In this document: one piece after another, positions 4,385-63,556 of the stretch
Layout: the number at the start of each line of letters is the position of its first letter
How positions within the stretch are numbered: position 1 is the stretch's first letter
Position numbers and translations under genes: made by a program
Origin: a phage
DNA length: 64,000 bases
Sequence record: PZ386958.1
Strand: one strand, 5' to 3'
Notes under the pieces: model-generated
The model's database searches: none
What the model was told of the DNA's origin: nothing
What the model saw: only the letters and a program-made list of their open reading frames with translations

Positions 4385-4393
4385 AGTTTTCCC

Positions 4394-4879: not shown

Positions 4880-5436
4880 TTAGTGTACCTCATACCAGCT
4901 TTTACCAACCTTACCAGTACCTGTAACAAGTGTTTCTTTCTTAAGACCTAAGTTCTTAGAAGCTTGTCCATAATACCAGTCAGTAACTGCTTTCACTTCT
5001 GCCGTCATACTTTCTGGACATTCCCAACTCGTCTCGTCGTGATAGGAGCACAATAAACGAGCACCTATAGCTGGCTTGCGACCGTTCAACTTCATCAAAC
5101 CTTCGTCAATCATACGACGGCAAGCAAGGTTAATTGCTTCATTCTGAACCTGTGCTTCCGAACTCATCAGGAGGTAGTTCAGTAGTTTATGTGGAGATTT
5201 GCACCATATCCATGCTCCAGCGACCCTGATATAACCACCTTTAGCAATTGAAGAGTTCTTCCCGAAAACCTCTTCCAGAGCCTTTTTAGACGCCTTAAAA
5301 TCGGCTTCTAAGCTATCAAGTAACTTCTTAATCTTTGGCAGACGCATATAGTAAGTTTGTTTAGTCAATGCACCTTCTTCCGTAGATGATGCCTTGATAG
5401 TTTTTGCAAACTTCTCGTCACCTGCACCGAACAATA
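4880..5436 (-). CDS. DNA polymerase (family A, T7 gp5-like), exon 2
   Basis: Begins (L)FGAGDEKFA = end of O-helix/motif B (T7: FLYGAGDEK); contains motif C YHDE and C-terminal GKVGKSWYEVH (T7: GKMGPNWAICH). The track's start M is a TTG codon inside the exon. Confidence 0.8.
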
Positions 5437-5704
5437 CATCTGGTCAATACACTCGCAAGGTGTACCAGTTCTCTTATGAACTTCTCCGCATTTCTACGGA
5501 GTGTCGGACTATATCACGTAGTAGTAATACTACCGTTGCACTTGGGAATGGTCATTAGCTTACCACCCTACTCTACTCAGTTCATACATTAAGTATGCTT
5601 TTCGATAGTCTCTGAACGTTTCTCTTAAGAGGCTTCGCTGCTGATTACCATATCTTTACAGACTTAGGCTTCCAGCAATTCACAACGTTTTACATGCGCC
5701 ACTG
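5437..5704 (-). ncRNA. Group I self-splicing intron (ORF-less, 268 nt) interrupting the DNA polymerase gene
   Basis: RNA strand contains group I R element GUUCAGAGACUA (plus 5606-5617) and S element GAUAUAGUCC (plus 5505-5514) that can pair as P7; internal guide GCGCAU pairs with 5' exon end AUGCGU (terminal U.G); intron ends in G; removal fuses ...AKNGIYA to LLFGAGDEK in frame. Confidence 0.75.
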
Positions 5705-7877
5705 ACGCATAAATGCCATTTTTGGCTTTCTTACGACCTTTTGTAATCTCGTGGAGAAGTTCCTCATCCTGTGTCTCCCTACAACGAACAATATCTTCTT
5801 CCTTGTTCAGACCAAAGTAAATACTGTTCAGTGTATGCGCATCAGTCCCTGTGTAGACTTCATAGAGGTCGTTCTCAGCATCATAACGAAGATACTTGTC
5901 AGTTTCTGGATTAAGATACTTATCGAGATGCTTGCAATAGTATCTGCCATCATCCTGTTTAGTGAACTCTACAAACTCTTTACCCTCAGTTACTGCTTTA
6001 GTGAACTCTTTATCACCCATAAAGTTACAAAGGAGAACTAGCTGGGCTGAGTTCATATCAACGGAGACTACGTTGGTTCCCTCCTCACAAATCCAAACCT
6101 CCCTCATCGGTGCTCCATAGACAGCAGCACCAGACGGTACGTTTACAATGCCATATTGTGTCATACGTCCAGTTGAAGTACCAAACACCATTGCACCAGC
6201 ACTAAGGCGACCATCAGGACGAATCTGGTTCAACCAACCTTTTTCATCATCCTTTGAGTTCTCAATAGTTCTGCGTCGGTGCATCAAAGTGTAGTATTTA
6301 GCAATCTTCTGTCCAAGCTCACCTTCAATCGTATCATAAGATGATTCAGTAAGTTTTGGTGAAGTACGGATTAAGCAAGGCTCAAGCAAATCTGTGTATT
6401 TCTTCACAGACCAGTTATGCTCAATGTACTGTACACCTTCATGTTCAACATAACTCAAACCACACCGCTCAACCATTTCCTGCCACTTAGGATGTTTTGT
6501 AATCATCTTTTTATTGTCTTTGAAACGACAAACTTTGACAGGACGACCATCTGAGTCTTTCTTGTAGTTCCAGTCATCTGGAATCCAACCAACTGATTTC
6601 AAGTAGTCTTTAACAACGGCTACCTGAGTCATACGAGAAACTTCAAACTCAATTGGTGTATATGGTGCATCAATCAAACCTGTGTAGCGACTTGACTCAA
6701 GTTCAAAGTGGTTAACAACGTGGCTGTTATAGTACTTCACAGTCTTGACTGTTTTTACTGGTTTCCAGTCTTTGCATTTTTTGCCAATCTTTGCATTCAA
6801 CTCGTTGCAGATTGCACGAGCATCCTTCATTGCTACAAAGCCTTCCTTGTATTCTTCACCAGTTACAGTGTTGGTTGGCGTATAGCAATTCCTTTTTTCA
6901 ATGTTAAAAATCTTTGTAGTTGGCTTACCAAATGGCTTGATTTCATATGTCTGCATCTCACCGTTACGTACCTGCTGACGATACTTTGTCTTAGGGTACT
7001 TGGTAATTCTCTTCAGTCCATCTGCGTGACCAAATGCTTCAACATACTCATTCCAAGCTTTTGCAAACTCTTCTCCAGTAACTTTACCTTTGGTCTTAAT
7101 AGTTGGAGGTAGATGTGGTTCAACCTCTGAAGCAAGCTCATTAGTCAACTTGTCAAGTTCCTTTACATGGAACTCCATAAGCTCTTTATCAGCTTTCCAA
7201 CCATTGATAGCTTGTTGACTCATCCAGAAAGATGTTTCTTTAGCTCGCATGTAGGTTTCATAAGTGTCTATGCCACACTTCTTAAGCTTGAGATACTCGT
7301 TATCAAGTGCCCGTTTAGTTTTGGCGTTAATACGGATATCTTCTACAACACGAGTGAAGATTTCTGCATTCCACACACCCCAATGCTCAATCTCTGGCTT
7401 ACGAACACCAACACGAGCACCCCATGCAGCCAAGCCATGAGCACCTTTATAACCCTTTGGAGTTGGTCTATCCATCCACTGAACACGAGACTGAATAAGA
7501 GAATCCTGAAAGAAATTACTCCACGGCTTACATTTTGGATTATCAAAGTTCCATAAATCAGGTGCAATGTGATTGAAAACCCACCAGTCATAGCCGAGAC
7601 CATTATGGATGCAAAGACGTTTTGCCTTTAACGCAAATTCAACACCTTCACGTAAGCCGCCCTTGATGTACTTGGTATACTTGTGACCGAGGATAGGCTC
7701 GTCTGTAAAGACCCATACAGGCGGCTCTTCATCGTCAGATTTATAATCTGCGAAAGCCATTACGTGCACTTTAGTGAACTCAAGGAGTAAACCATCAGTT
7801 TCTGTATCACCAACCAAATGTAAGTTTTTAAAATCTACGTTTTCCATTTTTACTCCCTCTAAAATCATTAACCACAT
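5705..7877 (-). CDS. DNA polymerase (family A, T7 gp5-like), exon 1 (3'-5' exonuclease plus N-terminal polymerase domain)
   Basis: Exo I motif DTETDGL near N-terminus; ends with O-helix RKKAKNGIY (T7: RDNAKTFIYG). The track ORF reads 13 codons into the intron before a stop. Confidence 0.8.
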
Positions 7878-52811: not shown

Positions 52812-53097
52812 CGTTAAACTCTCTGACGAAGAAATAGTTGACTTTGTTATTACCTACCATAAGGTCAAAGCAGGTATTCTCAAAAGGCTTGTTGTAGGCA
52901 TCGTATGAAGTGTACGTATCAGCTACTTGTTTAGTGTTGAGCTTTTTACTTGATGGATTTAAGAGGCCACCATACAGTTTCTTGATAGCCTCTTCTACAA
53001 CAGACCAGATAATTTCGTCAGTAATTTCTTCGTACAGGTCAAGTTCACGCTCTAGTGAGAAGTCACAAATAGGGAATACAACCTGTACTTTGCTCAT
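52804..53097 (-). CDS. Hypothetical protein
   Basis: 97-aa ORF. Confidence 0.35.
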   Translation of the reverse strand: MSKVQVVFPICDFSLERELDLYEEITDEIIWSVVEEAIKKLYGGLLNPSSKKLNTKQVADTYTSYDAYNKPFENTCFDLMVGNNKVNYFFVREFNDE

Positions 53098-53492
53098 TAA
53101 CGAATAACCTGTGAGACTTGAATTGCTTCGGTTACTGACAAGTCACCTACTTTCTCTTCTTTGATAAAAGTGAAGGTAAGTTCAACAGGTTCTTGCTCTT
53201 CTTGCTCAACCGGAAGAGCATTAAGCTCATCAAAGATTGCTTGGGTAGTCCAGTCTTCCCCACCATCTGGATAATGGATTGCGTAAAGTGGAAACTCTAA
53301 ATTATACCAAGCAAAAACAGGGCAACCATCTGCATCATCTCGACATCTGTGGAGATATGTGTTTGTACCTTCAAAATGCAAATGGAGGTTACCATTCTTC
53401 TCAAAGAGAAGAGCATCTTTCAGGTCTAGTTCCTCATTTTTGCTGTAACGGCTGACATCAACTTTAACGTGAATATGACTGTTATTATTCAT
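53097..53492 (-). CDS. Hypothetical protein
   Basis: 131-aa ORF. Confidence 0.35.
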   Translation of the reverse strand: MNNNSHIHVKVDVSRYSKNEELDLKDALLFEKNGNLHLHFEGTNTYLHRCRDDADGCPVFAWYNLEFPLYAIHYPDGGEDWTTQAIFDELNALPVEQEEQEPVELTFTFIKEEKVGDLSVTEAIQVSQVIR

Positions 53493-53896: not shown

Positions 53897-53925
53897 GAAA
53901 ATAAAAAGGCTCCCGAAGGAGCCTA
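53897..53925 (-). terminator. Intrinsic terminator on minus strand (ggctccttcgggagcctttttatttt)
   Basis: Reverse complement of plus 53897-53925 gives stem, TTCG loop, T-run. Confidence 0.55.
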
Positions 53926-53933: not shown

Positions 53934-54398
53934 TTACTTTGGGTATACACTGTCAAGATAAATGTCAGCTTCCATTCTACGTCTGTTTTTCAGTCCGTTT
54001 GAAGTGACCTTCTGACCTTTGACTGTAACCTTGTTCCACCACTGCATAGCTTCTGCACAACCTACCTTATTACCAGCGTTGTGGCGCTTGATAAATGTAG
54101 AGTCCTGCATAGCTGTGATACCAATGTTGTATGTTTCACTTACAAGTGCATCAAACTCGTTCTGAGAAGTTGGAACCTTGATGGCTTTGTTCACTGCTGC
54201 AACGAACTTTTCAACATCTGCGAGAAGATACTGTTCAGCTTGTTCAGCCGTGATTCTCATACCCATCTTAACAGGTTTACCAGCAATACGGATTGTTCCA
54301 TACCCAATTGTAGGGATTCCAGCAGAATCTTCGTAAGCCTCTAGCTTAAGACCTTCAAAGAACTTAATAGCTTCTAAACCTTTTCTTGAGAGTTGCAT
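53934..54398 (-). CDS. Lysozyme (T4 e-type, glycoside hydrolase family 24)
   Basis: 154 aa; FEGLKLEAYEDSAGIPTIGYGT matches catalytic E..D..T region of T4 lysozyme. Confidence 0.75.
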   Translation of the reverse strand: MQLSRKGLEAIKFFEGLKLEAYEDSAGIPTIGYGTIRIAGKPVKMGMRITAEQAEQYLLADVEKFVAAVNKAIKVPTSQNEFDALVSETYNIGITAMQDSTFIKRHNAGNKVGCAEAMQWWNKVTVKGQKVTSNGLKNRRRMEADIYLDSVYPK

Positions 54399-55030
54399 TA
54401 TGCCCCTCCTACTGGACTAACTGTAACTGTTGCTGCATTGGATGTTACAGAGCCACCTGCACCAGTAACTACACAGGTGTAGCTTCCTGAATCAGCAGCA
54501 GTTGCACCTTCTTTGGTGTAAGTTGCAGTAGTTGCATCGAGGATGTCTTCCTCACCTTTCTTCCATTGGTAACCTGTCGCACCTGTTGCAGCCACTACCA
54601 AGTTGATGTTTCCACCCTCATTGACTGTTTGACCTGTTGGTTGCTGAGTAATTGCTGGTGGCTTAATAGCATCCTTCAACTTAGCATTCAACATTGAGAA
54701 CGGCTTAACTCTTGCCAACCATTCACAGTAAATTGTGTCAACATCTTTACCATTGATGATTGCATACTGCAAATCCATGAAGAAATCAGCAGTTCTCATC
54801 TGTGCACCAACACTGTAAAGCAATTCATCACTAAATGGAACTTTGTAGTCTGGTTTGTAGTCAAACTTCTCAACTTCTGCAATATCAGCTTCAGGCCAAT
54901 ACGAACTATAGGTGAGTGGTAAAATAATCTCTTGATATGTTCTAAAATCATATCTCTTACCAGCTTTTACGTTTGCAATGAAGCCCTTCACAAACTCTTT
55001 GAAGTCTGGGTAAGTCTTTGCTTTAATCAT
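54398..55030 (-). CDS. Hypothetical protein with C-terminal Ig-like domain; paralog of next gene
   Basis: 210 aa; N-terminal 120 aa alignable to 55027-55398 product; C-terminus PPAITQQPTGQTVNEGGNINLVVAATGATGYQWKKGEEDILDATTATYTKEGATAADSGSYTCVVTGAGGSVTSNAATVTVSP is Ig-like. Confidence 0.4.
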   Translation of the reverse strand: MIKAKTYPDFKEFVKGFIANVKAGKRYDFRTYQEIILPLTYSSYWPEADIAEVEKFDYKPDYKVPFSDELLYSVGAQMRTADFFMDLQYAIINGKDVDTIYCEWLARVKPFSMLNAKLKDAIKPPAITQQPTGQTVNEGGNINLVVAATGATGYQWKKGEEDILDATTATYTKEGATAADSGSYTCVVTGAGGSVTSNAATVTVSPVGGA

Positions 55031-55398
55031 TTCTTTTTAGCCTCTAAATGTGCGTTTAGTCTAAAATAACCTTTGTGGTGTGGAGATACATCACCAACAA
55101 CAACACCTTTAACCTTATAACCTTTACCAATTACATACTGGATATCCATAAGGAATCTACCAAGACCAACAATATGGAACATTGGATATAATAGATTCTC
55201 AGAGTCTGGAATATTGATTTCAGGTTTGTAGGTGCGTTGTTCGATTGTTGGTGTAATATCTTCTTCAGGCCATTTACTGAGTCTCCATGTCAAAGGTGTT
55301 GGGATAACATCATTAAGGTTGTACCTTTCACCATTTTTCACGGAATTGATATAGGATTGTAGGAAGCAATAAAAGTCTTTTGCACTCTTAGCTTTCAT
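55027..55398 (-). CDS. Hypothetical protein (paralog of 54398-55030 N-terminal domain)
   Basis: 123 aa; shared pattern KxKxxxDFxxFxxxxIxxVKxGxRY ... WPEEDI ... YKP. Confidence 0.4.
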   Translation of the reverse strand: MKAKSAKDFYCFLQSYINSVKNGERYNLNDVIPTPLTWRLSKWPEEDITPTIEQRTYKPEINIPDSENLLYPMFHIVGLGRFLMDIQYVIGKGYKVKGVVVGDVSPHHKGYFRLNAHLEAKKK

Positions 55399-55445
55399 TA
55401 AATATCCTTATAAATAGTTAAAGGGGCATCAGCCCCTATTCACAC

Positions 55446-56036
55446 TTAAGCTTTTGTCTTAAGTAGGTTCTTAAGTTTTTTAAGATTCATACTCTCATCA
55501 AACTTAAAACCAAATCCATTGACATAATCAATGAACTCGGATTTCTTACTTAGTGACAATGCGTAACTCATATCAAAGTTCTTACTTGTTTCTGCGTCTG
55601 GACTAGAGTTCACATCAAATGAAATTTCTGTAGGCTCTTGCTTGCTGCTTCTCATATTATCAATTAATAGGCATGTATAGTTCGCTGGATAGAAGTTTGC
55701 ACTGCCATCAACATACCCATACTTATTGTTGTGAATAAGGTTTGAAAATACCTTAAGAAATGTTTCTGAGTCGTGGCATACAAGTTTGAATTGACTGCAC
55801 TCTCCAAGAGCCACTAAAGAGTAAGGACTTTCACTATCAAAGTCATAATTTGGATTCGATGACGTCACTGTTACACGCATCAAGTTATTAGCAATAGTCT
55901 TCTGTTTAAAAGAATTTGAAACATAGTGAAGACCTCTATTGCACTGATTGACTAGCTCTTTAAGTAGGTCATTTGCATATGGTGAGTTAATTGATACAGA
56001 GCCATCACTATTGTAATTAAAACTTACTGTTAACAT
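55446..56036 (-). CDS. Hypothetical protein
   Basis: 196-aa ORF. Confidence 0.4.
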   Translation of the reverse strand: MLTVSFNYNSDGSVSINSPYANDLLKELVNQCNRGLHYVSNSFKQKTIANNLMRVTVTSSNPNYDFDSESPYSLVALGECSQFKLVCHDSETFLKVFSNLIHNNKYGYVDGSANFYPANYTCLLIDNMRSSKQEPTEISFDVNSSPDAETSKNFDMSYALSLSKKSEFIDYVNGFGFKFDESMNLKKLKNLLKTKA

Positions 56037-56655: not shown

Positions 56656-57027
56656 ATGAAAAACAGAACAAACAAAGGCCAGTTTAAAAAAGGCCAGTCT
56701 GGAAACCCATCTGGAAGACCAAAAGGCTCTCGTAACAAAAGCTCACTCGTAAAAGCTCAACTGACCATTGATAATTCTGCTGAGTTTGCTGCAAAGTTGT
56801 TTGAAGCGATTGTTACAAGGGACGCTGCTAAGCTTGCAGAGTTCGGTTTGACGACTGACGATGTAAACCTGAAGTCGATGATGGAAGCTGGTAAAACTAT
56901 CATGACCCACTCAGCAGGTGAGATGAAAGCAATTGCAGCAGACACTAAGAAGACCCCTGATAATGGTGGTCAGTCTCAGACAGATAACAAACCAACGTTC
57001 TCTGCTGTAGCGACTCTCAAAAAATAA
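56656..57027 (+). CDS. Small protein with AT-hook-like motif (KGQSGNPSGRPKGSRNK)
   Basis: 123 aa; GRP core in basic, glycine-rich N-terminus. Confidence 0.4.
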   Translation: MKNRTNKGQFKKGQSGNPSGRPKGSRNKSSLVKAQLTIDNSAEFAAKLFEAIVTRDAAKLAEFGLTTDDVNLKSMMEAGKTIMTHSAGEMKAIAADTKKTPDNGGQSQTDNKPTFSAVATLKK

Positions 57028-57109
57028 TTTTAAAAGGTGTTGACAGACTCTACAAAGTTGCTCTAAAGTCTGTCACATCAACAAACAAAATGAGAGAAGA
57101 GAGTAAAAT

Positions 57110-58486
57110 ATGAGCGAATTATTTAAACATGCGCACCTTCATGCAGGTCGAACTGAAAATGGTGCTGTAAACCATACTTCATCAATGTCTGCTCTTGTAG
57201 ACTTTTACAAAGCTGCTGGTTCAAGCCGTAGCAACGTAGAAATCTTACCAGACCTGTTCTACAAAGCTTTGCGTGAGGATGTTGATGTTGCAGTTCGTAT
57301 TTTGCTTCATATGCGAGATGTGCGAGAAGGTATGGGTGAGCGTAAAGCCTTCAGAACTGTTTTGCTTCAAGCAATTGAAGATAAAGTTTTAGAGCCTACA
57401 CAGGTTCTTCGCATTATGGATAAGATTGCAGAACTTGGTCGTTTTGATGACTTCAAAATCTTCGTAGGTACTCGTTTCGAGACGGATGCCTTCAAACATT
57501 TAGAAGCAGCATTACTAGACCCTGCAACAGCAGGTTTGGCAGCTAAGTGGTTACCACGAGTCAAACCACGTCATAAGCAGTTTGTAAAACGTTTCTGCAA
57601 GTTTGCCAACTTGAGTGAGAAAGAGTACCGCACACTGTTATCTGCACTGTCTGATACAGTTGAGCAAAAAATCTCTGCTAATGAGTTTGGTAAGATTGAC
57701 TACAGCAAGATTCCTTCACTTGCTGCTGCACGTTACCAAAAACTGTTTAACCGTAAAGATGGAGAACGCTACAAAGCTTATATTGAGTCTTTATCAAAAG
57801 GTGAGGCTAAGATTAACGCTGGTGCTGTTTACCCATACGATGTGATTAAGTCTATCAAGCATGGTAATGCAGATGTTGCCAATGAGCAGTGGAAAGCACT
57901 ACCAAACTGGATGGCAGAAGGTGAGAACATCTTGTGTATGACTGATGTTTCAAGCTCAATGTCTTGGGTGAATCTTGGCTCAATCACCGCCCTTGATATT
58001 GGTGTATCACTTGCCTTGTATGTAGCAGAACGCAATACAGGCTGCTTTAAGAATGAGTTAATGGTTTACTCAACAAACCCTCACTTCATCGAACTGAGTG
58101 GTGATTTACGAAATCGTCATCGTCAGGTGATGCGACACGTTGAATATGGTTCAACTAACTTACAAGCAGCTTTTGACCGCATTCTTGAGGTAGGTAAGAG
58201 AAACAACTTGACTCAGAAAGATATGCCAAGTAAGCTTATTATCTTCTCTGATATGGAGTTCAATCAGGTTGATGGTGCAAATGGTCGTACAAACTTTGAA
58301 GCAATTCAGAGTAAGTACAAAAAAGCTGGATACGAAATGCCTCAACTGGTATTCTGGTACTTAGCAAACCGTAATGGTACTTGCGAAGTGTCTGTTAAGG
58401 ATAACGGTGTAGCAATGGTATCAGGGTTCTCTCCAGCCACTTTAAAAGCTCTGCTTGGTGGTGAGAAGTTTGACCAATCAGCGTAA
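57110..58486 (+). CDS. von Willebrand factor A (vWA) domain protein with N-terminal helical domain (possible TROVE/Ro60-like or DUF2828-like)
   Basis: 458 aa; MIDAS motif DVSSS in LCMTDVSSSMSW; N-terminal 270 aa helical; directly upstream of tRNA cluster. Confidence 0.45.
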   Translation: MSELFKHAHLHAGRTENGAVNHTSSMSALVDFYKAAGSSRSNVEILPDLFYKALREDVDVAVRILLHMRDVREGMGERKAFRTVLLQAIEDKVLEPTQVLRIMDKIAELGRFDDFKIFVGTRFETDAFKHLEAALLDPATAGLAAKWLPRVKPRHKQFVKRFCKFANLSEKEYRTLLSALSDTVEQKISANEFGKIDYSKIPSLAAARYQKLFNRKDGERYKAYIESLSKGEAKINAGAVYPYDVIKSIKHGNADVANEQWKALPNWMAEGENILCMTDVSSSMSWVNLGSITALDIGVSLALYVAERNTGCFKNELMVYSTNPHFIELSGDLRNRHRQVMRHVEYGSTNLQAAFDRILEVGKRNNLTQKDMPSKLIIFSDMEFNQVDGANGRTNFEAIQSKYKKAGYEMPQLVFWYLANRNGTCEVSVKDNGVAMVSGFSPATLKALLGGEKFDQSA

Positions 58487-58689: not shown

Positions 58690-58766
58690 CTCTGTTTAGC
58701 TCAGCTTGGTAGAGCGTTCCGTTTGGGGCGGTAAGGCCGGAGGTTCAAGTCCTCCAACAGAGACCA
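58690..58766 (+). tRNA. tRNA-Pro (anticodon TGG)
   Basis: Acceptor CTCTGTT/AACAGAG, T-arm GGAGG-TTCAAGT-CCTCC, loop TTTGGGG, 3' CCA encoded. Confidence 0.6.
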
Positions 58767-58773
58767 AATTAAT

Positions 58774-58851
58774 GTTCCAGTAGACAAAATGGTATAGTCA
58801 CCACTCTTTCAAAGTGGATATCTGAGGGTTCAAATCCCTTCTGGAACGCCA
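58774..58851 (+). tRNA. tRNA-Glu (anticodon TTC)
   Basis: Acceptor GTTCCAG/CTGGAAC, anticodon stem CCACT/AGTGG loop CTTTCAA, T-loop TTCAAAT, CCA encoded. Confidence 0.6.
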
Positions 58852-58857
58852 GTTTTG

Positions 58858-58931
58858 ACAGAAGACCAATTACAGCAAACTTAATCTTATTCATCTGAAG
58901 GTAAATCGGACAAAGAAGAGATTTGGTCTGG
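58858..58931 (+). ncRNA. Bracket stem-loop element a (ACAGAAGACCaatTACAGCAA ... tTTGGTCTGG)
   Basis: 5' AGACCAA pairs with 3' TTGGTCT; conserved TACAGCAA; one of four copies with compensatory changes. Confidence 0.45.
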
Positions 58932-58942
58932 TCATTAAGAAT

Positions 58943-59019
58943 TGCGGGTATAGAGAAAGGGCGTCTCACATGTCTCATTAGCATGGTATCGGCAGGTTCG
59001 ACTCCTGCACCCGCCTCCA
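58943..59019 (+). tRNA. tRNA with CAT anticodon (Met or Ile-lysidine)
   Basis: Anticodon stem CATGT/GCATG loop CTCATTA; T-arm GCAGG-TTCGACT-CCTGC; 1-72 mismatch; CCA encoded. Confidence 0.5.
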
Positions 59020-59024
59020 AATTT

Positions 59025-59090
59025 ACAGAAGACCGTTTACAGCAATATTTATTAAATTTTTAGCGGAAAAATTGAAAGATACGGTCTGGT
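59025..59090 (+). ncRNA. Bracket stem-loop element b
   Basis: ACAGAAGACCGTTTACAGCAA ... ACGGTCTGG; AGACCGT pairs with ACGGTCT. Confidence 0.45.
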
Positions 59091-59102
59091 AATACTAAAC
59101 AT

Positions 59103-59179
59103 GGTTAGGAAGCACATAAGGTATGTGCGGTCGCCTGTTAAGCGAATGGCACAGGGTTCGAATCCCTGACTAACCGCCA
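59103..59179 (+). tRNA. tRNA-Asn (anticodon GTT)
   Basis: Loop CTGTTAA; T-arm CAGGG-TTCGAAT-CCCTG; acceptor 3' ACTAACC-G-CCA. Confidence 0.55.
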
Positions 59180-59248
59180 AATTTAGGAGAGAAGCGATTG
59201 CTCACCGATTTGTAAGGTGCAAGTCCTTAGCCTGAATAGAAATTAAAT

Positions 59249-59336
59249 GTGTCGTTATCCCGTAGATGGTAGCGGTGGGGACTGTAAATCCCTTGTCATT
59301 GAGACTCGGTAGGTTCTACTCCTACACGGCACACCA
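59249..59336 (+). tRNA. tRNA-Tyr (anticodon GTA), long variable arm
   Basis: 88 nt; anticodon stem GGGGA/TCCCT loop CTGTAAA; acceptor GTGTCGT/ACGGCAC; CCA encoded. Confidence 0.55.
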
Positions 59337-59341
59337 ATAAA

Positions 59342-59419
59342 GGTTATGTAGTTTAATTTGGTTAAAATACTCCCCTGTCACGGGAGATGATGAGGGTTCA
59401 AATCCCTTCGTAACCGCCA
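59342..59419 (+). tRNA. tRNA-Asp (anticodon GTC)
   Basis: Anticodon stem CTCCC/GGGAG loop CTGTCAC; T-arm GAGGG-TTCAAAT-CCCTT; CCA encoded. Confidence 0.6.
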
Positions 59420-59450
59420 ATTTTGAGAGGGCTATTTAGCCCCTCCCTTA

Positions 59451-59478
59451 AATGGTTCTTACGAGTATCCTTTAAAGG
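59451..59478 (+). ncRNA. Conserved small hairpin GGTTCTTACGAG(T/A)(A/G)TCCTT(T)AAA (copy 1)
   Basis: Second copy at 62447-62474. Confidence 0.3.
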
Positions 59479-59480
59479 AG

Positions 59481-59553
59481 CAGAAGACCAAATACAGCAA
59501 GAACGTATGAAATTTCAAGCCAATTTAATTTTGAAAATTTAAACTTGGTCTGG
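59481..59553 (+). ncRNA. Bracket stem-loop element c
   Basis: CAGAAGACCAAATACAGCAA ... CTTGGTCTGG. Confidence 0.45.
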
Positions 59554-59565
59554 CTCAACAAATTT

Positions 59566-59698
59566 ACAGAAGACCGTCTACAGCAAAACTTAAACAATCT
59601 ATTTCTCCGGTAAAGAAAAGGCGAAGGTTCGATTCCTTCACTCGGCAGATGTCGAGTTGGTGTAATGGTAGCACTTAAGATGATAAACAACGGTCTGG
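59566..59698 (+). ncRNA. Bracket element d enclosing a permuted tRNA-like module (T-arm, acceptor-like hairpin, D-arm); candidate Y-RNA-like ncRNA
   Basis: Closing stem AGACCGT(C)/ACGGTCT; inside: GAAGG-TTCGATT-CCTTC, hairpin ACTCGGC-AGAT-GTCGAGT, then TGGTGTAATGGTAGCAC; no anticodon arm. Confidence 0.45.
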
Positions 59699-59701
59699 TA
59701 A

Positions 59702-59841
59702 TTATCTTTGTAGATAAGTTATTAAGCTTACCTGTGAGTATGCGACCACAAAGGGTGAAAGGGTAAATTCTAGATTTAAACCCAAAAAGGCACATCGCTA
59801 CAGACCTTAAGCAAGTCTGGGTAGCTTATCTACAAAGATAA
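59702..59841 (+). ncRNA. Structured element closed by a perfect 17-bp inverted repeat (TTATCTTTGTAGATAAG / CTTATCTACAAAGATAA)
   Basis: Enclosed ~106 nt has internal hairpins (CAGACCTTAAGCAAGTCTG; AGCTTACC...GGTAGCTT); no ORF. Confidence 0.4.
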
Positions 59842-59847
59842 TTTAAT

Positions 59848-59923
59848 GGAAGTGTAGCAGAATGGTGATGCGGCAGACTTTTAATCTGACAGGCGATGGG
59901 TTCGAATCCCTCCACTTCTACCA
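59848..59923 (+). tRNA. tRNA-Lys (anticodon TTT)
   Basis: Acceptor GGAAGTG/CACTTCT; D-loop AGCAGAATGGTGATGC; loop CTTTTAA; T-loop TTCGAAT; CCA encoded. Confidence 0.55.
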
Positions 59924-59927
59924 AAAT

Positions 59928-60004
59928 GGTTCAGTCGCAGATAAGGTAATGCAGGGGTCTCATAAGCCCTATGAATGTGGGTTCGATTCCCATCTGAACC
60001 TCCA
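59928..60004 (+). tRNA. tRNA with CAT anticodon (second copy; Met or Ile-lysidine)
   Basis: Acceptor GGTTCAG/CTGAACC; anticodon stem GGGGT/GCCCT loop CTCATAA; T-loop TTCGATT; CCA encoded. Confidence 0.5.
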
Positions 60005-60006
60005 AT

Positions 60007-60081
60007 TGTGGGTTAGCATAAATGGTAATGCAAACGGCTGATAACCGTTAGAAGAGGGTTCGATACCCTCACCTACAACCA
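60007..60081 (+). tRNA. tRNA-Ile (anticodon GAT)
   Basis: Anticodon stem AACGG/CCGTT loop CTGATAA; T-arm GAGGG-TTCGATA-CCCTC; CCA encoded. Confidence 0.6.
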
Positions 60082-60095
60082 ATTTCAATAAAGTT

Positions 60096-60130
60096 GTTGA
60101 CATTAAGATGTGACTACTTTATAGTAACCT
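60096..60130 (+). promoter_or_regulatory. Sigma70-like promoter inside tRNA cluster (gttgacattaagatgtgactactttatagtaacc)
   Basis: TTGACA - 17 nt - TATAGT. Confidence 0.5.
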
Positions 60131-60328
60131 TAGTTTTCGTTGCGTAGCGTCTATTTTGCAAATTTAAAATAAATGCAAACGACAATGTTTTTCTGGCAGT
60201 AGCTTGATAGGCTAAACACCAGTGAGGTCTTCCAATCCCTCATCAAAGAATTTGGCGTACTCGCCCACGGTATGATTAATAAGGTGGGCATCTTTAAGGG
60301 CTTTCTAAGAGAGTCTTTAAAGATTAAT

Positions 60329-60403
60329 GCTCCGTTAGTCTAAAGGATAGGCATCTGTCTTCTAAACAGATTGATATAGGTTCGAGTCCTATACGGAGTG
60401 CCA
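60329..60403 (+). tRNA. tRNA-Arg (anticodon TCT)
   Basis: Acceptor GCTCCGT/ACGGAGT; anticodon stem TCTGT/ACAGA loop CTTCTAA; T-loop TTCGAGT; CCA encoded. Confidence 0.6.
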
Positions 60404-60519
60404 TATTTAGAGTGTCTCCAAATGGAGGTGGTCTGTATCTCATGTTTTCCAGAACATGTAAATAATCTGAGAAGGGGCTTTACAGTGTTGAGATAATACG
60501 GTAAGCTTCGAATTATAAT

Positions 60520-60602
60520 ATGGGACGATGTTAAGACTCTAAGGCATGAGCAACGGCTTCCAACACCGTTTCAAAGGGGTTCAACTCCTCCGTCCCATGC
60601 CA
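60520..60602 (+). tRNA. Atypical 83-nt tRNA (possible anticodon CCA, Trp) or tRNA-like gene
   Basis: Acceptor ATGGGAC/GTCCCAT and T-arm AGGGG-TTCAACT-CCTCC clear, CCA encoded; D/anticodon region too long and folds ambiguously. Confidence 0.35.
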
Positions 60603-60615
60603 AAGTCTTATTAGG

Positions 60616-60703
60616 GGTAGGTAGCGGCTAATGGTAGCCAAACTGTCTTGAAAACAGTTGCCACTGTAGAGATACGGTGAGGGTTCGACTCCTTTACTTA
60701 CCG
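60616..60703 (+). tRNA. tRNA-Ser (anticodon TGA), long variable arm; CCA apparently not encoded
   Basis: Anticodon stem ACTGT/ACAGT loop CTTGAAA; long extra arm; T-arm GAGGG-TTCGACT-CCTTT; acceptor 3' ACTTACC-G then CCT. Confidence 0.45.
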
Positions 60704-60859
60704 CCTAATAAGATTTTAAAGCCAAGCTTCATTCGGATGTTGCTTTGGCATCCCTCGTGTTGTCGTACACACTAATAAAGCACCTAGTAGGTGTCATGGA
60801 GAAGAGATAATATCAAGCTCTCCAAAGGTTCTAGTCACCGGATTAAACAAGACTATGCA

Positions 60860-60880
60860 AAGACCAATTTAGGTCTTTTT
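60860..60880 (+). terminator. Hairpin plus T-run (aagaccaatttaggtcttttt)
   Basis: Stem AGACC/GGTCT followed by TTTTT within tRNA cluster. Confidence 0.45.
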
Positions 60881-60959
60881 AGAGGGCTTCTAAGGTTATT
60901 ACAGCTTGTTGTGGAACCTTGTTGCTTAGGTTCTTAGAAGTTCTCTAAAAAGATTTAAT

Positions 60960-61036
60960 GCACCTATAGCCCAACTGGTAGAGGCAGCAGACTTAGAATC
61001 TGCTCAGTGTGAGTTCGAATCTCTCTAGGTGTACCA
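60960..61036 (+). tRNA. tRNA with anticodon TAG (Leu-decoding), short variable arm
   Basis: Acceptor GCACCTA/TAGGTGT; anticodon stem GCAGA/TCTGC loop CTTAGAA; T-loop TTCGAAT; CCA encoded. Confidence 0.45.
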
Positions 61037-61043
61037 AATTAAT

Positions 61044-61119
61044 GCAGGTGTAGCAGAATGGTGATGCGGCTGACTCTTAATCAGTAAGACGATGGGTTCA
61101 ATTCCCTCCACCTGTACCA
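61044..61119 (+). tRNA. tRNA-Lys (anticodon CTT)
   Basis: Paralog of 59848-59923; loop CTCTTAA; acceptor GCAGGTG/CACCTGT; CCA encoded. Confidence 0.55.
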
Positions 61120-61125
61120 AACATT

Positions 61126-61201
61126 GGGGATGTAGTTTACATGGTTAAAACATAAGTTTTGCAAACTTAAGTACAGGGTTCAATTCCCTGCTTCTCCACC
61201 A
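61126..61201 (+). tRNA. tRNA-Ala (anticodon TGC)
   Basis: Anticodon stem TAAGT/ACTTA loop TTTGCAA; G3:U70 wobble in acceptor; T-arm CAGGG-TTCAATT-CCCTG; CCA encoded. Confidence 0.55.
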
Positions 61202-61207
61202 ATTAGT

Positions 61208-61282
61208 GCATCCATAGTTTAAACGGGAAAATTACAGTCTTCCAAACTGAGGTTGAGGGTTCGATTCCCTCTGGATGCTCCA
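61208..61282 (+). tRNA. tRNA-Gly (anticodon TCC)
   Basis: Acceptor GCATCCA/TGGATGC; loop CTTCCAA; T-loop TTCGATT; CCA encoded. Confidence 0.6.
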
Positions 61283-61288
61283 AATAAA

Positions 61289-61365
61289 GCTGCTTTCGTA
61301 TAATTGGCTATTACACATCCCTTGTAAGGATGGAAATGCAGGTTCGAGTCCTGTGAGCAGCACCA
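61289..61365 (+). tRNA. tRNA-Thr (anticodon TGT)
   Basis: Acceptor GCTGCTT/GAGCAGC; anticodon stem CATCC/GGATG loop CTTGTAA; T-loop TTCGAGT; CCA encoded. Confidence 0.6.
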
Positions 61366-61367
61366 AT

Positions 61368-61455
61368 TCAGAGGTCAAGTGAAAGACCGCTGGTGTCAAC
61401 TGAAGACCGTAACAAATTCCACGGAGTTGAGTTAGCGGCACAACTTCAGACCTCT
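61368..61455 (+). ncRNA. Structured non-tRNA element with nested stems (CAGAGGTC...GACCTCT outer stem)
   Basis: Inner pairs TCAACT/AGTTGA and CCGCTG/AGCGG; contains bracket-like GAAGACCG; no ORF. Confidence 0.35.
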
Positions 61456-61460
61456 TTCAC

Positions 61461-61541
61461 ACTCGCTTAGTTTATATGGTAAAACATCACCCTTACAAGA
61501 TGAAGATGAAGAAAAAGGTTCAAGTCCTTTAGTGAGTACCA
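61461..61541 (+). tRNA. tRNA-like gene, atypical (possible anticodon TAC, Val) with enlarged variable region
   Basis: Acceptor ACTCGCT/AGTGAGT, T-arm AAAGG-TTCAAGT-CCTTT, CCA encoded; anticodon stem has a C-A mismatch. Confidence 0.35.
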
Positions 61542-61542
61542 T

Positions 61543-61620
61543 GTTCCAGTATCCCAATTGGCAGAGGATGCAAGCTCAAACCTTGTATTAGTGACGGTTC
61601 GAATCCGTCTTGGAACACCA
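61543..61620 (+). tRNA. tRNA with anticodon CAA (Leu-decoding), short variable arm
   Basis: Acceptor GTTCCAG/TTGGAAC; anticodon stem GCAAG/CTTGT loop CTCAAAC; T-loop TTCGAAT; CCA encoded. Confidence 0.45.
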
Positions 61621-61638
61621 ATTTAAAGAGGCTATTTA

Positions 61639-62196
61639 ATGAGATATTTGAAGTACGCTTCATGGATTTTCTTAGCTTTACTAGACCCAATTGCAGCAAC
61701 CCTAGCAGTTATCTTAGCACCTTTCGTAGTTCCATTCTACAGTGAAAAGAAAGGACACTTACCTTTTGGATTCAGATGGATGGAGACTTATGACAACCCG
61801 ATTGATGGTGATGAAGGCCACGTTAAAAGATGGGCTAAGATTAGAAAGATTGGTAAGCTTGGTGTCTACATGCAGAGAGTTGGATGGCTCTGGAGAAACA
61901 AAGCTTATAACTTCTCTTACCATGTATTAGGAAGAGATGTAAAAGATGTTACTAAGTGGAAAGGTAATATCAACGTAAGTTCTAACCCTGAAGATAATCA
62001 GACTGGTTATCTCCTAATGTGGAACAGTAATGCTTGGGGATTATTCGCTTTTATCCCATCAATTAAAGTCTTTGGTAAACAGTTTTACTGGAGAATTTAT
62101 ATTGGATGGAAACTAAAAAGTGTTGTCCCAGAAGAAAGAGCATTCTCAAGGGAAAGAGTTATGTTGGCATTCTTTATTCATCCACTGAGAAAGTAA
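61639..62196 (+). CDS. Membrane protein embedded in tRNA cluster
   Basis: 185 aa; hydrophobic N-terminus WIFLALLDPIAATLAVILAPFVVPF; flanked by tRNA genes. Confidence 0.45.
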   Translation: MRYLKYASWIFLALLDPIAATLAVILAPFVVPFYSEKKGHLPFGFRWMETYDNPIDGDEGHVKRWAKIRKIGKLGVYMQRVGWLWRNKAYNFSYHVLGRDVKDVTKWKGNINVSSNPEDNQTGYLLMWNSNAWGLFAFIPSIKVFGKQFYWRIYIGWKLKSVVPEERAFSRERVMLAFFIHPLRK

Positions 62197-62204
62197 AGAT
62201 TTAA

Positions 62205-62280
62205 AGGGGATTAGTTTACAAGGTTAAAACCTCGGTCTTTGAAATCGAAGAAGTTGGTTCAATTCCAACATCCCCCGCCA
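62205..62280 (+). tRNA. tRNA-Gln (anticodon TTG)
   Basis: Anticodon stem TCGGT/ATCGA loop CTTTGAA; T-arm GTTGG-TTCAATT-CCAAC; 1-72 mismatch; CCA encoded. Confidence 0.5.
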
Positions 62281-62282
62281 AT

Positions 62283-62361
62283 GCTCCATTACTCCAATTG
62301 GCAGAGAGGCCAGACTTAAAATCTGTGTTATGTATCGGTTCGAATCCGATATGGAGTACCA
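62283..62361 (+). tRNA. tRNA with anticodon TAA (Leu-decoding), short variable arm
   Basis: Acceptor GCTCCAT/ATGGAGT; loop CTTAAAA; T-arm ATCGG-TTCGAAT-CCGAT; CCA encoded. Confidence 0.45.
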
Positions 62362-62366
62362 AATTT

Positions 62367-62442
62367 AGCGGTATAGCATAACTGGCAATGCAGCAGTCTC
62401 TGAAGCTGTCTTATTAAGGTTCAAATCCTTATGCCGCTGCCA
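62367..62442 (+). tRNA. tRNA-Gln (anticodon CTG)
   Basis: Acceptor AGCGGTA/TGCCGCT; loop CTCTGAA; T-arm TAAGG-TTCAAAT-CCTTA; CCA encoded. Confidence 0.5.
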
Positions 62443-62446
62443 CTTC

Positions 62447-62474
62447 TAAGGGTTCTTACGAGAGTCCTTAAATG
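62447..62474 (+). ncRNA. Conserved small hairpin TAAGGGTTCTTACGAGAGTCCTTAAATG (copy 2)
   Basis: Stem TAAGG/CCTTA; same loop as 59451-59478. Confidence 0.3.
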
Positions 62475-62549
62475 TGGCCTTATCATAAATGGTAATGACC
62501 CATGCTGTGAACATGGTCTATACGGGTTCAAATCCCGTAGGTCACCCCA
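62474..62549 (+). tRNA. tRNA-His (anticodon GTG)
   Basis: Acceptor GTGGCCT/AGGTCAC; anticodon stem CCATG/CATGG loop CTGTGAA; T-arm ACGGG-TTCAAAT-CCCGT; CCA encoded. Confidence 0.6.
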
Positions 62550-62554
62550 ATTTA

Positions 62555-62631
62555 TAGTCCAAGTAGCTTATATGGTTAAAGCGCGTGTCTGAAAAACATG
62601 AGAAGAGGGTTCAAATCCCACTGGACTACCA
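62555..62631 (+). tRNA. tRNA-Phe (anticodon GAA)
   Basis: Anticodon stem CGTGT/ACATG loop CTGAAAA; T-loop TTCAAAT; acceptor AGTCCAA/CTGGACT (one mismatch); CCA encoded. Confidence 0.5.
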
Positions 62632-62647
62632 ATTTCAAAGGTGCTTA

Positions 62648-63382
62648 ATGAAAGAGATGACAGAACAAGGTAAGGAGATTTTTAATCTCTTAAAAACCGG
62701 TAGAGGGTTTTCTAATCCCCTTATTACTGGTGCAGCAGTTCTAGGTGGAACCGTGGCTGCCTCTACATCACTTGTAAGCTCTATTAGCTCTGTAACAGAC
62801 CCTACAATAAAGGATAAACTTATTGCTGCTGGACTTACAACAGTTCTGCTTAATAGCTTTACAACGAGTCTGACAAGCACTACATCAACTACTAAGACCC
62901 TAACAGACTATGGTCAAAAGTCTATTGATGAGTTTTCATCACGTATGCAGGTAGCAAAGGGATACTCCAATGTTATGGGTGCAGCAGGAGAACAAGTCGG
63001 TTGTACACCATTCAGTGGTATTATGGGTGTTGCTACAGAGTATGGTCAAAAAGCTATTGATATGATTAACAGTGCACTAGACGGTGTTAATGATGTATTA
63101 AGTGACTTACAAGACGCTATTGACAAAGGTCTTGATACTATTTCTGATTTAGCTAACCAAGCTGTTAGTAAGATTAATGAAGGTATCTCGAAGATTACAG
63201 CTTATGCAGATGAAGTTGTGCAGATGATTGAAGAAGAAGCTGCCCTTATTGCAGAGTACCTTAAAACGAATATCAATGGGTTCTTAGCAGGTATCTTACC
63301 AGACTGGTTTGATGATGCTTGTAAAACTGGTGTAATTGATACTATTGCAACACCAGAAATGAAGAACGCATTACAGAAATAA
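62648..63382 (+). CDS. Hypothetical protein embedded in tRNA cluster (Ser/Thr-rich N-terminal region)
   Basis: Start MKEMTEQGKE chosen downstream of tRNA-Phe (track ORF 62585 would overlap the tRNA); about 244 aa. Confidence 0.45.
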   Translation: MKEMTEQGKEIFNLLKTGRGFSNPLITGAAVLGGTVAASTSLVSSISSVTDPTIKDKLIAAGLTTVLLNSFTTSLTSTTSTTKTLTDYGQKSIDEFSSRMQVAKGYSNVMGAAGEQVGCTPFSGIMGVATEYGQKAIDMINSALDGVNDVLSDLQDAIDKGLDTISDLANQAVSKINEGISKITAYADEVVQMIEEEAALIAEYLKTNINGFLAGILPDWFDDACKTGVIDTIATPEMKNALQK

Positions 63383-63383
63383 T

Positions 63384-63476
63384 GGAAGATTAACCCTAAA
63401 AGGTAAGGGAGCAGTTTGCTAAACTGCCAGTAGCTGAGAAATCGGTGTACCAGTTCAAGTCTGGTATCTTCCTCCA
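63384..63476 (+). tRNA. tRNA-Ser (anticodon GCT), long variable arm
   Basis: Acceptor GGAAGAT/ATCTTCC; anticodon stem GCAGT/ACTGC loop TTGCTAA; long extra arm; T-arm ACCAG-TTCAAGT-CTGGT; CCA encoded. Confidence 0.55.
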
Positions 63477-63480
63477 ATTT

Positions 63481-63556
63481 GAATCCGTGACAGAAATGGC
63501 TATGTGCCTGTCTGCAAAACAGGTTTATAAGGGTTCGAGTCCCTTCGGATTCTCCA
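63481..63556 (+). tRNA. tRNA-Cys (anticodon GCA)
   Basis: Acceptor GAATCCG/CGGATTC (perfect); anticodon stem CCTGT/ACAGG loop CTGCAAA; T-arm AAGGG-TTCGAGT-CCCTT; CCA encoded. Confidence 0.6.

Follow-up and report, generated by a model that had tools for sequence, protein, structure and literature searches.

A hexamer decoration gene and its probable capsid-binding-domain duplicate beside the endolysin of a Felix O1-like phage

Two small tandem genes lie beside the lysozyme gene in a 64,000-nucleotide stretch of phage DNA (PZ386958.1; this whole stretch is hereafter called the window), raising the question of whether their products assist the lysozyme at the cell wall, as the original prediction proposed, or belong to another part of the phage. 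The region shares 92-94% nucleotide identity with Felix O1-type phages, and the source phage is a Felix O1-like myophage (Felixounavirus). Both reading frames were found on the minus strand at exactly the predicted coordinates, directly upstream of a T4-type lysozyme gene as predicted (GH24; PF00959, E=1.1e-40 in Pfam; phrog_7 endolysin, E=2e-57 in PHROG). The locus contains the following features, all on the minus strand:

55423..55436, minus strand: GC-rich hairpin, GGGGCTGATGCCCC then TTTAACTATTTAT, read from the sequence
55405-55409, minus strand: Shine-Dalgarno sequence AAGGA ahead of the short paralog
55027..55398, minus strand: Ig-less paralog of the Hex-Dec capsid-binding domain (CapBD), 123 aa; Felix O1 ORF37, Sf14 gp21, bas63_0125; phrog_4463
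54398..55030, minus strand: ortholog of the hexamer decoration protein Hex-Dec, 210 aa, a Hoc-like capsid decoration protein with a single Ig (phmmer, PHROG, cryo-EM of orthologs)
54671..55030, minus strand: CapBD of Hex-Dec, residues 1-120, including Arg79 and Arg107 (tblastn identity to Bas63)
54401..54661, minus strand: I-set/Ig_3-type Ig-like domain of Hex-Dec, residues 124-210, for outward display (Pfam)
53934..54398, minus strand: GH24 (T4-type) endolysin, final gene of the three-gene block (Pfam, PHROG)
53907..53924, minus strand: intrinsic-terminator-like hairpin, AGGCTCCTTCGGGAGCCT then a T-run, directly past the lysin stop (consensus scan)

The stop codon of the short paralog overlaps the Hex-Dec start codon in the sequence ATGA, and base 54398 is common to the lysozyme start codon and the Hex-Dec stop codon, of which it is the last base. 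The hairpin at 55423-55436 lies between an upstream gene of 196 aa and the short paralog, is kept in REP11, Z31, SP116 and CECAV041, and is identical in sequence to a listed rho-independent terminator of Felix O1 (PMC3185647). A late-promoter-like motif upstream of the short paralog, CTATTTATAAGG, was not enriched (12 matches in the window versus 8.2 expected), and a sigma-70 scan of the region did not rise above shuffles.

The claim that the two proteins share an N-terminal domain of about 120 aa was borne out: the motifs KAK..DF..F...I..VK.G.RY, WPE.DI and YKP occur in both, BLASTP aligned the proteins with 39% identity over 101 residues (E=5e-18), and each protein matched the PHROG family of the other (E=6e-16 and 3e-17). 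The predicted C-terminal Ig-like domain of the longer protein was likewise recovered, with matches over the Pfam cut-offs at residues 124-205 to Ig_3 (E=2e-9), Ig_2 (E=2e-7) and I-set (E=7e-7). NCBIfam contained nothing over cut-off for either paralog or for the upstream 196-aa gene.

The identity of the longer protein was clear from searches of the PDB with phmmer, in which its residues 1-205 matched residues 1-206 of the Hex-Dec chain of Bas63 (9ncf_S, E=5.5e-212) and the protein also matched Sf14 gp20 (9c2d_S/9c3a, E=6.6e-149); it falls into phrog_3995 (E=2.9e-119), and its CapBD is 95.8% identical to that of Bas63 (tblastn) and 88% identical to that of Sf14. The 210-aa gene is therefore the hexamer decoration gene of the genus, known as Hex-Dec in Bas63 (JohannRWettstein; 9NCF chain S), gp20 in Sf14 (9C2D/9C3A chain S) and gp36 in Felix O1, whose products also carry the Ig region at the C terminus and whose genes are likewise flanked by the short paralog and the lysin. 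We found nothing that contradicted this identity. GenBank, UniRef and PHROG names would instead make both products tail proteins ('tail protein' or 'HK97 major tail subunit'), a reading to which we give next to no credence: PHROGs 158 and 3575 match residues 119-205 only and phrog_853 matches residues 96-205, that is, mainly the Ig, whereas the N-terminal domain is a CapBD and not a tail-tube domain, and cryo-EM puts the orthologs on the capsid (PMC12609058, PMC11821841).

In the published maps, Hex-Dec/gp20 is found as monomers in the centres of 60 facet-edge hexamers of a T=9 capsid (PMC12609058, PMC11821841), and its Ig domains, numbering 1-4 across the genus, point outward (PMC12609058). 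The hexamer centres of Sf14 are lined with Asp, and R79 and R107 of gp20 are salt-bridged to Asp221 of the major capsid protein (MCP) (PMC11821841). Felix O1 gp36 was detected in purified virions by mass spectrometry, with 44% coverage. Both arginines are present in the 210-aa translation, and residue 221 of the Felix O1 MCP is Asp; a tblastn search of the 64-kb window with this MCP gave no match, and the MCP lies outside the window. Taking the capsid location of the window's protein from its close orthologs (cryo-EM maps for Bas63 and Sf14, virion mass spectrometry for Felix O1), we propose that its N-terminal domain of about 120 aa would sit as a monomeric plug in the acidic centres of the T=9 capsid's 60 pentamer-proximal hexamers at the facet edges, that Arg79 and Arg107 would salt-bridge Asp221 of the MCP, and that the single C-terminal Ig would stand out from the capsid like a short Hoc-type fibre. 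An internal duplication matching the two pseudo-C2 lobes, L1 and L2, of the published CapBD structure (PMC12609058) was not detectable in the sequence (hhalign of the two halves, probability 0.07).

The window phage has one Ig, compared with two in Felix O1, three in Sf14 and four in Bas63, and the Ig that it retains is of the terminal type, not Ig1. At the nucleotide level this Ig shares 90% identity with the terminal Ig of Felix O1 and 83% with Ig4 of Bas63, and its first quarter finds its best match in Ig1 of UAB_Phi87 (84%). These identities point to an origin by in-frame recombination between repeats, with loss of the internal Ig. Tandem Repeats Finder reported no array for the four Bas63 Ig repeats, which are too diverged at the DNA level.

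Hex-Dec resembles T4 Hoc in being a dispensable monomer at the hexamer centre, in which a small capsid binder carries an outward string of Ig-like domains (PMC12609058, PMC11821841). However, the capsid-binding domain of Hoc is C-terminal, so that the order is reversed in Hex-Dec, and the Hex-Dec CapBD has a distinct, larger topology with pseudo-C2 lobes and minimal sequence similarity to the Hoc binder (PMC12609058). Unlike Hoc, Hex-Dec occupies edge hexamers only. The PHROG families named 'Hoc-like head decoration' match the 210-aa protein in its Ig region alone (residues 126-207), and the protein is an analog of T4 Hoc and not a member of the Hoc family. Hoc is not known to have an Ig-less paralog. 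By analogy with Hoc, the Ig of Hex-Dec probably mediates weak adhesion or aggregation, which is compatible with the general remark in the original prediction that Ig-like domains of phages serve adhesion. Another Ig-bearing decoration protein has the same order as Hex-Dec, with the capsid binder at the N terminus and an Ig-like domain at the C terminus (PMC11821841); its Ig alone matches residues 128-207 of the window protein (E=2e-8 and 5e-8; phmmer, PDB), whereas its capsid-binding domain is unrelated in sequence to the window CapBD.

The longer gene thus encodes an already characterised Hoc-like protein, neither a tail nor a lysis protein. The proposal that the pair forms a cell-wall-targeting or lysis accessory module with the adjoining lysozyme drew on real features of the locus: the GH24 lysin is adjacent, start and stop codons overlap, the block lies between two hairpins, and the synteny with the lysin is kept even in Kolesnikvirus and Hafnia phages. 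However, cryo-EM of orthologs shows the domain common to the two proteins to be the capsid binder of a Hoc-like decoration protein, the close orthologs of the long protein are capsid components by both cryo-EM and mass spectrometry, and neither protein matched a lysis family in PHROGs or Pfam. In Felix O1, moreover, ORF36 and ORF37 are maximal at 60 min together with the morphogenesis genes, whereas the lysin, ORF35, is maximal at 25 min. No hydrophobic segment is present in either paralog (the highest 19-residue Kyte-Doolittle mean is 1.14 in the short protein and 1.04 in the long one), which argues against a holin, antiholin or spanin. The lysis-module reading is therefore largely refuted, and we regard it as scarcely credible; the adjacency to the lysin is conserved late-gene synteny and no evidence of shared function.

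The remaining question is the nature of the 123-aa protein, which ends at residue 123 with no Ig-like domain and no Pfam match. Its residues 3-118 matched the solved Hex-Dec chains with E about 1e-12, and its identity to the Hex-Dec CapBDs of the known systems is 33-38%. A first AlphaFold2 model, built from a shallow alignment of 15 sequences, reached a pLDDT of only 61, gave nothing meaningful in Foldseek and was discarded. A second model, built without a template from a 28-sequence alignment, had a pLDDT of 74.5 and a pTM of 0.76, and Foldseek matched it in the PDB to just two structures, the Hex-Dec CapBDs of Bas63 (9ncf_S, TM 0.69/0.70) and Sf14 (9c2d_S, TM 0.70/0.72), with E about 1e-5, the next match having E=0.24. 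The structure-prediction check thus indicated that the two N-terminal domains are alike (TM 0.69-0.72), with the limit that the fold match depends in part on sequence homology because the alignment behind the model contained Hex-Dec sequences. Compared with the Hex-Dec proteins of Bas63, Sf14 and Felix O1, the short paralog has the CapBD fold in common with them; it has no Ig, is basic, and has Gly at the Arg79 position. All short paralogs have Gly there (Gly78), and His, Gln or Arg where Hex-Dec has Arg107.

The order of the short and long genes is constant in Felixounavirus, Mooglevirus, Suspvirus and a divergent 87-kb metagenomic phage. We found 51 homologs of the short paralog, 88-124 aa in length and none with a Pfam domain, and wherever the locus of a copy was inspected, it proved to be this cassette. 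Outside the group with both genes, Erwinia phage Hena2 (Kolesnikvirus, 206 aa) and Hafnia phage SarahDanielle (321 aa) have a single-copy Hex-Dec whose CapBD is 39% and 27% identical to that of the window, respectively; as in the window, the gene lies between a homolog of the 196-aa gene and the lysin, but the display domains are Big_2 (PF02368), not I-set Ig, and there is no short paralog, so that Kolesnikvirus and Hafnia phages have one CapBD-plus-Big_2 gene in the slot beside the lysin. Wider searches for CapBD relatives, by profile over 5.8 billion proteins and by HMM over 1.84 billion representatives, returned only Ounavirinae-like proteins; the exhaustive HMM search yielded about ten credible cluster representatives, all of the short-paralog or Hex-Dec type. 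Additional short-stretch matches to three repetitive or giant proteins (P0107-P0109) were taken as spurious.

That the short gene is a decaying, functionless duplicate is very unlikely. It is a pseudogene with common lesions in the lineage of SP116, Z31, REP11 and CECAV041, which propagates normally, about 19 of 253 phage records are without it, and it evolves faster than its neighbours (median dN/dS 0.08 for both the lysin and the upstream gene). However, the frame is intact in about 233 of the 253 records, and the median dN/dS of 0.13 over 36 pairs (dS up to about 1.4) indicates that the gene is under purifying selection. In addition, the short copy of the 87-kb metagenomic phage persists with the signature motifs conserved at 44% identity to that of the window, and a good Shine-Dalgarno sequence precedes the gene, whose Felix O1 counterpart is transcribed late.

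We therefore considered where a conserved CapBD without a display domain might act. One proposal is that it is a second site-specific plug in the mature virion, on the 20 three-fold-axis hexamers or the pentamers, which are empty of Hex-Dec. Such a protein would have the fold of a hexamer-centre plug and, with a pI of 9.3, a charge suited to the Asp-lined hexamer centres of Sf14 (PMC11821841); Hex-Dec is confined to the edge hexamers, the Asp221 side chains are shifted in the three-fold hexamers (PMC11821841) and the paralog differs at the Arg79 contact, and both Felix O1 genes peak late. A monomer on a symmetry axis would be smeared by icosahedral averaging, and the protein is small, so that a second plug could have been overlooked. 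However, neither the Bas63 nor the Sf14 maps have density at the non-edge hexamers (PMC12609058, PMC11821841), and the Sf14 study included asymmetric reconstructions (PMC11821841). The list of 17 Felix O1 virion proteins is without the short paralog, even though the virion proteome did include smaller proteins such as gp23 (9.7 kDa) (PMC3185647), and one lineage propagates normally with the gene reduced to a pseudogene. The short paralog is unmentioned in the Sf14 and Bas63 cryo-EM papers (PMC11821841, PMC12609058) and in the virion proteomics literature searched (Sf14 supplements, VpaE1, wV8 and Felixounavirus LC-MS); the text of the VpaE1 paper, in which the protein list is a figure, names neither gp39 nor gp40, which counts as indirect evidence. 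The short paralog is probably not a stoichiometric virion component, and a second plug in the mature virion appears improbable. We give the same low standing to the related scheme in which tandem duplication produced two plugs, Hex-Dec for the 60 edge hexamers and the paralog for either the 20 three-fold hexamers or the pre-expansion hexamers of the procapsid.

A somewhat less remote but still doubtful alternative is that the short paralog has become a new non-capsid protein that acts late inside the cell, with a partner such as a host factor, nucleic acid or a defence-system decoy. The shift in pI from 5.5 in the CapBD to 9.3, the loss of Arg79 and the absence from virion proteomes and maps would all fit this alternative, as would the faster change of the short gene: between the window and the 87-kb metagenomic phage the CapBDs are 58% identical, as against 44% for the short copies, and the median dN/dS of the CapBD is 0.04, as against 0.13. 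However, the gene is predicted to be translationally coupled to Hex-Dec, with which it is co-regulated in Felix O1, its relatives are confined to the short-paralog and Hex-Dec types and to this one cassette, and Pfam, NCBIfam and PHROGs revealed no nucleic-acid-binding or other signature.

Taken together, these results favour, at a probability of roughly 0.8, the reading in which the long gene encodes the hexamer decoration protein, the short gene is a tandem duplicate of its CapBD alone, and the pair forms a late morphogenesis cassette beside the endolysin. The duplication would be old, having kept the fold and acquired a net positive charge without the display domain and Arg79. The short paralog and Hex-Dec are predicted to be translationally coupled, and this coupling, together with the late peaks of both genes in Felix O1, suggests a small late morphogenesis cassette. 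More tentatively, and at a little under even odds, we infer that the short protein has kept a role at capsid hexamers, where it would be an accessory or assembly factor that acts transiently or with low occupancy; its targets might be procapsids or sites unused by Hex-Dec. Its absence from the list of Felix O1 virion proteins, the lack of extra density in the maps, the change of Arg79 to Gly and the pseudogene lineage all argue against a capsid role.

The long gene was known already; the CapBD-only copy is not described in the literature searched. The analysis corrects the annotation of both genes, which databases label 'tail protein', and draws attention to a short paralog that is conserved, subject to purifying selection and, in Felix O1, expressed late, but that is missing from both cryo-EM papers on these phages. 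If the paralog does act on Hex-Dec-free hexamers or on procapsids, a duplicated decoration domain would have learned to tell quasi-equivalent capsid sites apart. The CapBD with its swappable display domains, I-set Ig here and Big_2 in Kolesnikvirus, in 1-4 copies, would moreover be a natural phage-display scaffold for therapeutic phages of the Felix O1 type.

The ORF listing for 51-59 kb of the window contains a run of minus-strand genes, among them the Ig-less short paralog, the longer Hex-Dec and the lysin:

55423-55436, minus strand, GC-rich hairpin preceding the short paralog
55027-55398, minus strand, short paralog, 123 aa
54398-55030, minus strand, long protein (Hex-Dec), 210 aa
53934-54398, minus strand, lysozyme (T4-type endolysin), 154 aa, PF00959 E=1e-40
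53907-53924, minus strand, terminator-like hairpin after the lysin

The short-paralog and Hex-Dec genes overlap by ATGA, and base 54398 is common to the Hex-Dec stop codon and the lysozyme start codon. The two proteins matched each other in BLASTP (E=5e-18, 39% identity across 101 residues). The long one matched Ig_3, Ig_2 and I-set at residues 124-205, all above the Pfam cut-off, and no Pfam domain was found in the short one. The original prediction of a paralog pair with shared N-terminal motifs, an Ig-like C-terminal domain in the longer member and a position immediately upstream of a T4-type lysozyme was thus borne out. Among PHROGs, the long protein belongs to phrog_3995 ('tail protein', E=3e-119) and the short paralog to phrog_4463 (unknown function, E=1e-79), and each cross-matches the other's family at E ~1e-16. 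Over 2.7 kb, the region shares 92-94% identity with ~200 Felix O1-like phages that infect E. coli, Salmonella and Shigella, its Felix O1 counterparts being ORF37 (hypothetical), ORF36/gene 12 ('tail protein', 294 aa) and ORF35/p13 (endolysin).

A 196-aa protein (55446-56036, minus strand, phrog_4034), with nothing above cut-off in Pfam or NCBIfam, always precedes the Hex-Dec locus, Kolesnikvirus and Hafnia phages included. Two genes downstream of the lysin lies a 131-aa ORF (53097-53492, minus strand), whose ortholog is labelled 'D-alanyl-D-alanine carboxypeptidase' in several GenBank records. The plus strand (56656-58486 and 58690-63556) holds a DUF5681 gene, transcribed divergently, a 458-aa protein that goes by 'RNA-binding protein' (also vWFA or DUF2828) in relatives and, after these, a 25-gene tRNA array.

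The long gene encodes a known capsid decoration protein, with a probability of about 0.97. A sequence search of the PDB matched it to 9ncf chain S ('Immunoglobulin-like domain protein', 460 aa, E=5.5e-212) and 9c2d/9c3a chain S ('putative tail protein', 372 aa, E=6.6e-149), from the cryo-EM structures of Bas63 (PMC12609058) and Sf14 (PMC11821841). This protein, Hex-Dec in Bas63 and gp20 in Sf14, is a monomeric Hoc-like decoration at the centre of capsid hexamers, restricted to the facet-edge hexamers (pentamer-proximal, quasi-three-fold) of the T=9 shell, and its Ig domains, 1-4 across the genus, form an outward-facing string that was not resolved (PMC12609058, PMC11821841). The Bas63 gene lies >10 kb away from the structural module (PMC12609058). 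In Sf14 gp20, Arg79 and Arg107 form salt bridges to Asp221 of the major capsid protein (PMC11821841); both arginines were found in the long protein of the window, whose capsid-binding domain at the N terminus (CapBD) shares 95.8% identity with that of Bas63 and 88% with that of Sf14. The Felix O1 ortholog, gp36, has been detected in purified virions with 44% coverage. We rejected the labels 'tail protein' and 'HK97 major tail subunit' as historical artefacts of the Ig domain, because the tail-protein PHROGs match mainly residues 125-205.

The proposal that the pair forms a cell-wall targeting or lysis accessory module was not supported. The Felix O1 RT-PCR table groups ORF36 and ORF37 with morphogenesis genes as a 60-min (late) class, whereas ORF35 (lysin) and ORF38 (ortholog of the 196-aa gene) fall in the 25-min class. 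The hairpin at 55423-55436 is in the Felix O1 terminator list (PMC3185647), and the short paralog has its own Shine-Dalgarno sequence, AAGGA. Neither paralog contains a hydrophobic segment (highest 19-residue Kyte-Doolittle mean 1.14 for the short and 1.04 for the long protein). Expression timing, context and the lack of a hydrophobic segment speak against accessory functions in lysis such as holin or spanin; the position beside the lysin is synteny conserved among late genes, and a lysis module is extremely improbable.

The short paralog matched residues 3-118 of the 9ncf/9c2d Hex-Dec chains (E ~1e-12) and no other PDB entry. An initial AlphaFold2 model, based on a shallow alignment, had a pLDDT of 61 and no Foldseek match. 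A second, from 28 sequences of short paralogs, Hex-Decs and Kolesnikvirus-type homologs, reached pLDDT 74.5 and pTM 0.76, and Foldseek against the PDB returned only 9ncf_S (TM 0.69/0.70, E=5e-6) and 9c2d_S (TM 0.70/0.72, E=1e-5) as matches, the next having E=0.24. The anticipated structural similarity of the two N-terminal domains was therefore recovered (TM ~0.7 to the Hex-Dec chains), with the caveat that Hex-Dec sequences were part of the alignment. By sequence and model, the short paralog is a CapBD that lacks the display domain. It is basic (pI 9.3, 18 K+R versus 13 D+E; CapBD pI 5.5), the Arg79 position is Gly (motif VGLG) in all short paralogs, and the Arg107 position is His, Gln or Arg.

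In tblastn searches of 50,697 phage records, the short paralog matched 253 records, 233 of them with at least 80% coverage and 19 only at <60% identity, that is, by Hex-Dec cross-match alone; the CapBD matched 292 (39 at <60% identity), including, by organism name, 29 Erwinia and 3 Hafnia phages. Short-paralog identity was 84-99% in Felixounavirus and 75-77% in Mooglevirus and Suspvirus. Felix O1-like DNA, 92% identical to the window region, also occurs at 141307-144260 of GU169904.1 ('Staphylococcus phage SA1', 147 kb), an assembly that is probably chimeric or contaminated. Among 1.84 billion cluster representatives, an exhaustive HMM search gave 13 matches, of which ~10 were credible, so the family is confined to an Ounavirinae-type phage group. 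An 87-kb metagenomic scaffold (ENA ERZ28599557 scaffold_93), a divergent uncultured Ounavirinae-like phage, encodes one of these matches, the 122-aa Ig-less protein P0104, and at 4368-6726 has the order 195-aa gene, short paralog, 298-aa Hex-Dec (2 Ig domains) and lysozyme. P0104 keeps the short-paralog signatures FYCFLQ and VGLG.FLMD.QYV and is 44% identical to the short paralog of the window, versus 58% for the partner CapBDs. By this order and these identities, the duplication is old and retained in at least four lineages, and its short copy evolves faster than the long one.

Median dN/dS (Nei-Gojobori, nine genomes) was 0.13 for the short paralog, 0.04 for the Hex-Dec CapBD and 0.08 for both the endolysin and the upstream 196-aa gene; selection on the short paralog is clearly purifying, though more relaxed than that on its neighbours, and a functionless remnant is very unlikely. 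In REP11, Z31, SP116 and CECAV041, however, the gene between the 196-aa homolog and Hex-Dec survives only as a pseudogene. These phages, from three continents (USA, China, Spain) and from E. coli, Shigella or Salmonella hosts, share the same lesions (ATA in place of the ATG start codon, a 1-nt deletion and a ~220-bp internal deletion), which argues for a single ancestral loss in a lineage still propagating. In Shigella phage Z31 (MN655999.1, 2498-3070), Hex-Dec is also broken up, leaving a CapBD-only ORF of 134 aa and an Ig remnant of 55 aa; the alternatives for Z31 are a natural double knock-out and a sequencing error.

The Felix O1 virion proteome comprises 17 proteins, among them ones of 9.7-13 kDa, and gp37 is absent. 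For VpaE1, with 22 virion proteins, only gp54, gp58 and gp68 are new relative to Felix O1 according to the text, which indirectly excludes VpaE1_040. The Sf14 (PMC11821841) and Bas63 (PMC12609058) papers do not mention gp21 or bas63_0125 and report no density at other hexamers. This negative evidence against a stoichiometric structural role is not decisive, because a monomer on an icosahedral three-fold axis would be averaged out and a 14-kDa protein at 20 copies is easily missed; a second plug at the three-fold hexamers is unlikely. A new, non-capsid function is somewhat less doubtful. Our tentative preference is that the short paralog may be a capsid-directed accessory of transient or low occupancy, acting, for example, on procapsids or at sites that Hex-Dec avoids. 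The gene itself is a diverged Ig-less CapBD paralog that the Felix O1, VpaE1, Sf14 and Bas63 papers covered here leave undescribed.

Among the genomes compared, Hex-Dec carries one Ig domain in the window and HMD-P8, two in Felix O1, VpaE1, SUSP1 and Moogle, three in Sf14 and UAB_Phi87 and four in Bas63. The Ig domain of the window shares 90% nucleotide identity with the last one of Felix O1 and 83-84% with the last ones of Bas63 and UAB_Phi87, and its first quarter is nearest to Ig1 of UAB_Phi87 (84%). The one-Ig form therefore looks like the product of in-frame recombination between repeats that removed the internal domain; this slightly refines the published view of repeat 1 as the conserved one (PMC12609058). 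Kolesnikvirus (Erwinia phage Hena2, 2941-3561) and Hafnia phage SarahDanielle (3001-3966) have a single gene in the Hex-Dec slot, between the 196-aa-gene homolog and the lysin, which encodes a CapBD with Big_2-type (PF02368) rather than I-set Ig domains; these copies are 39% (Hena2) and 27% (SarahDanielle) identical to Hex-Dec, versus 27% and 20% to the short paralog. In this outgroup, the display domain has been exchanged on a constant capsid anchor. The finding as a whole is mostly covered by existing knowledge, with a modest residual novelty.
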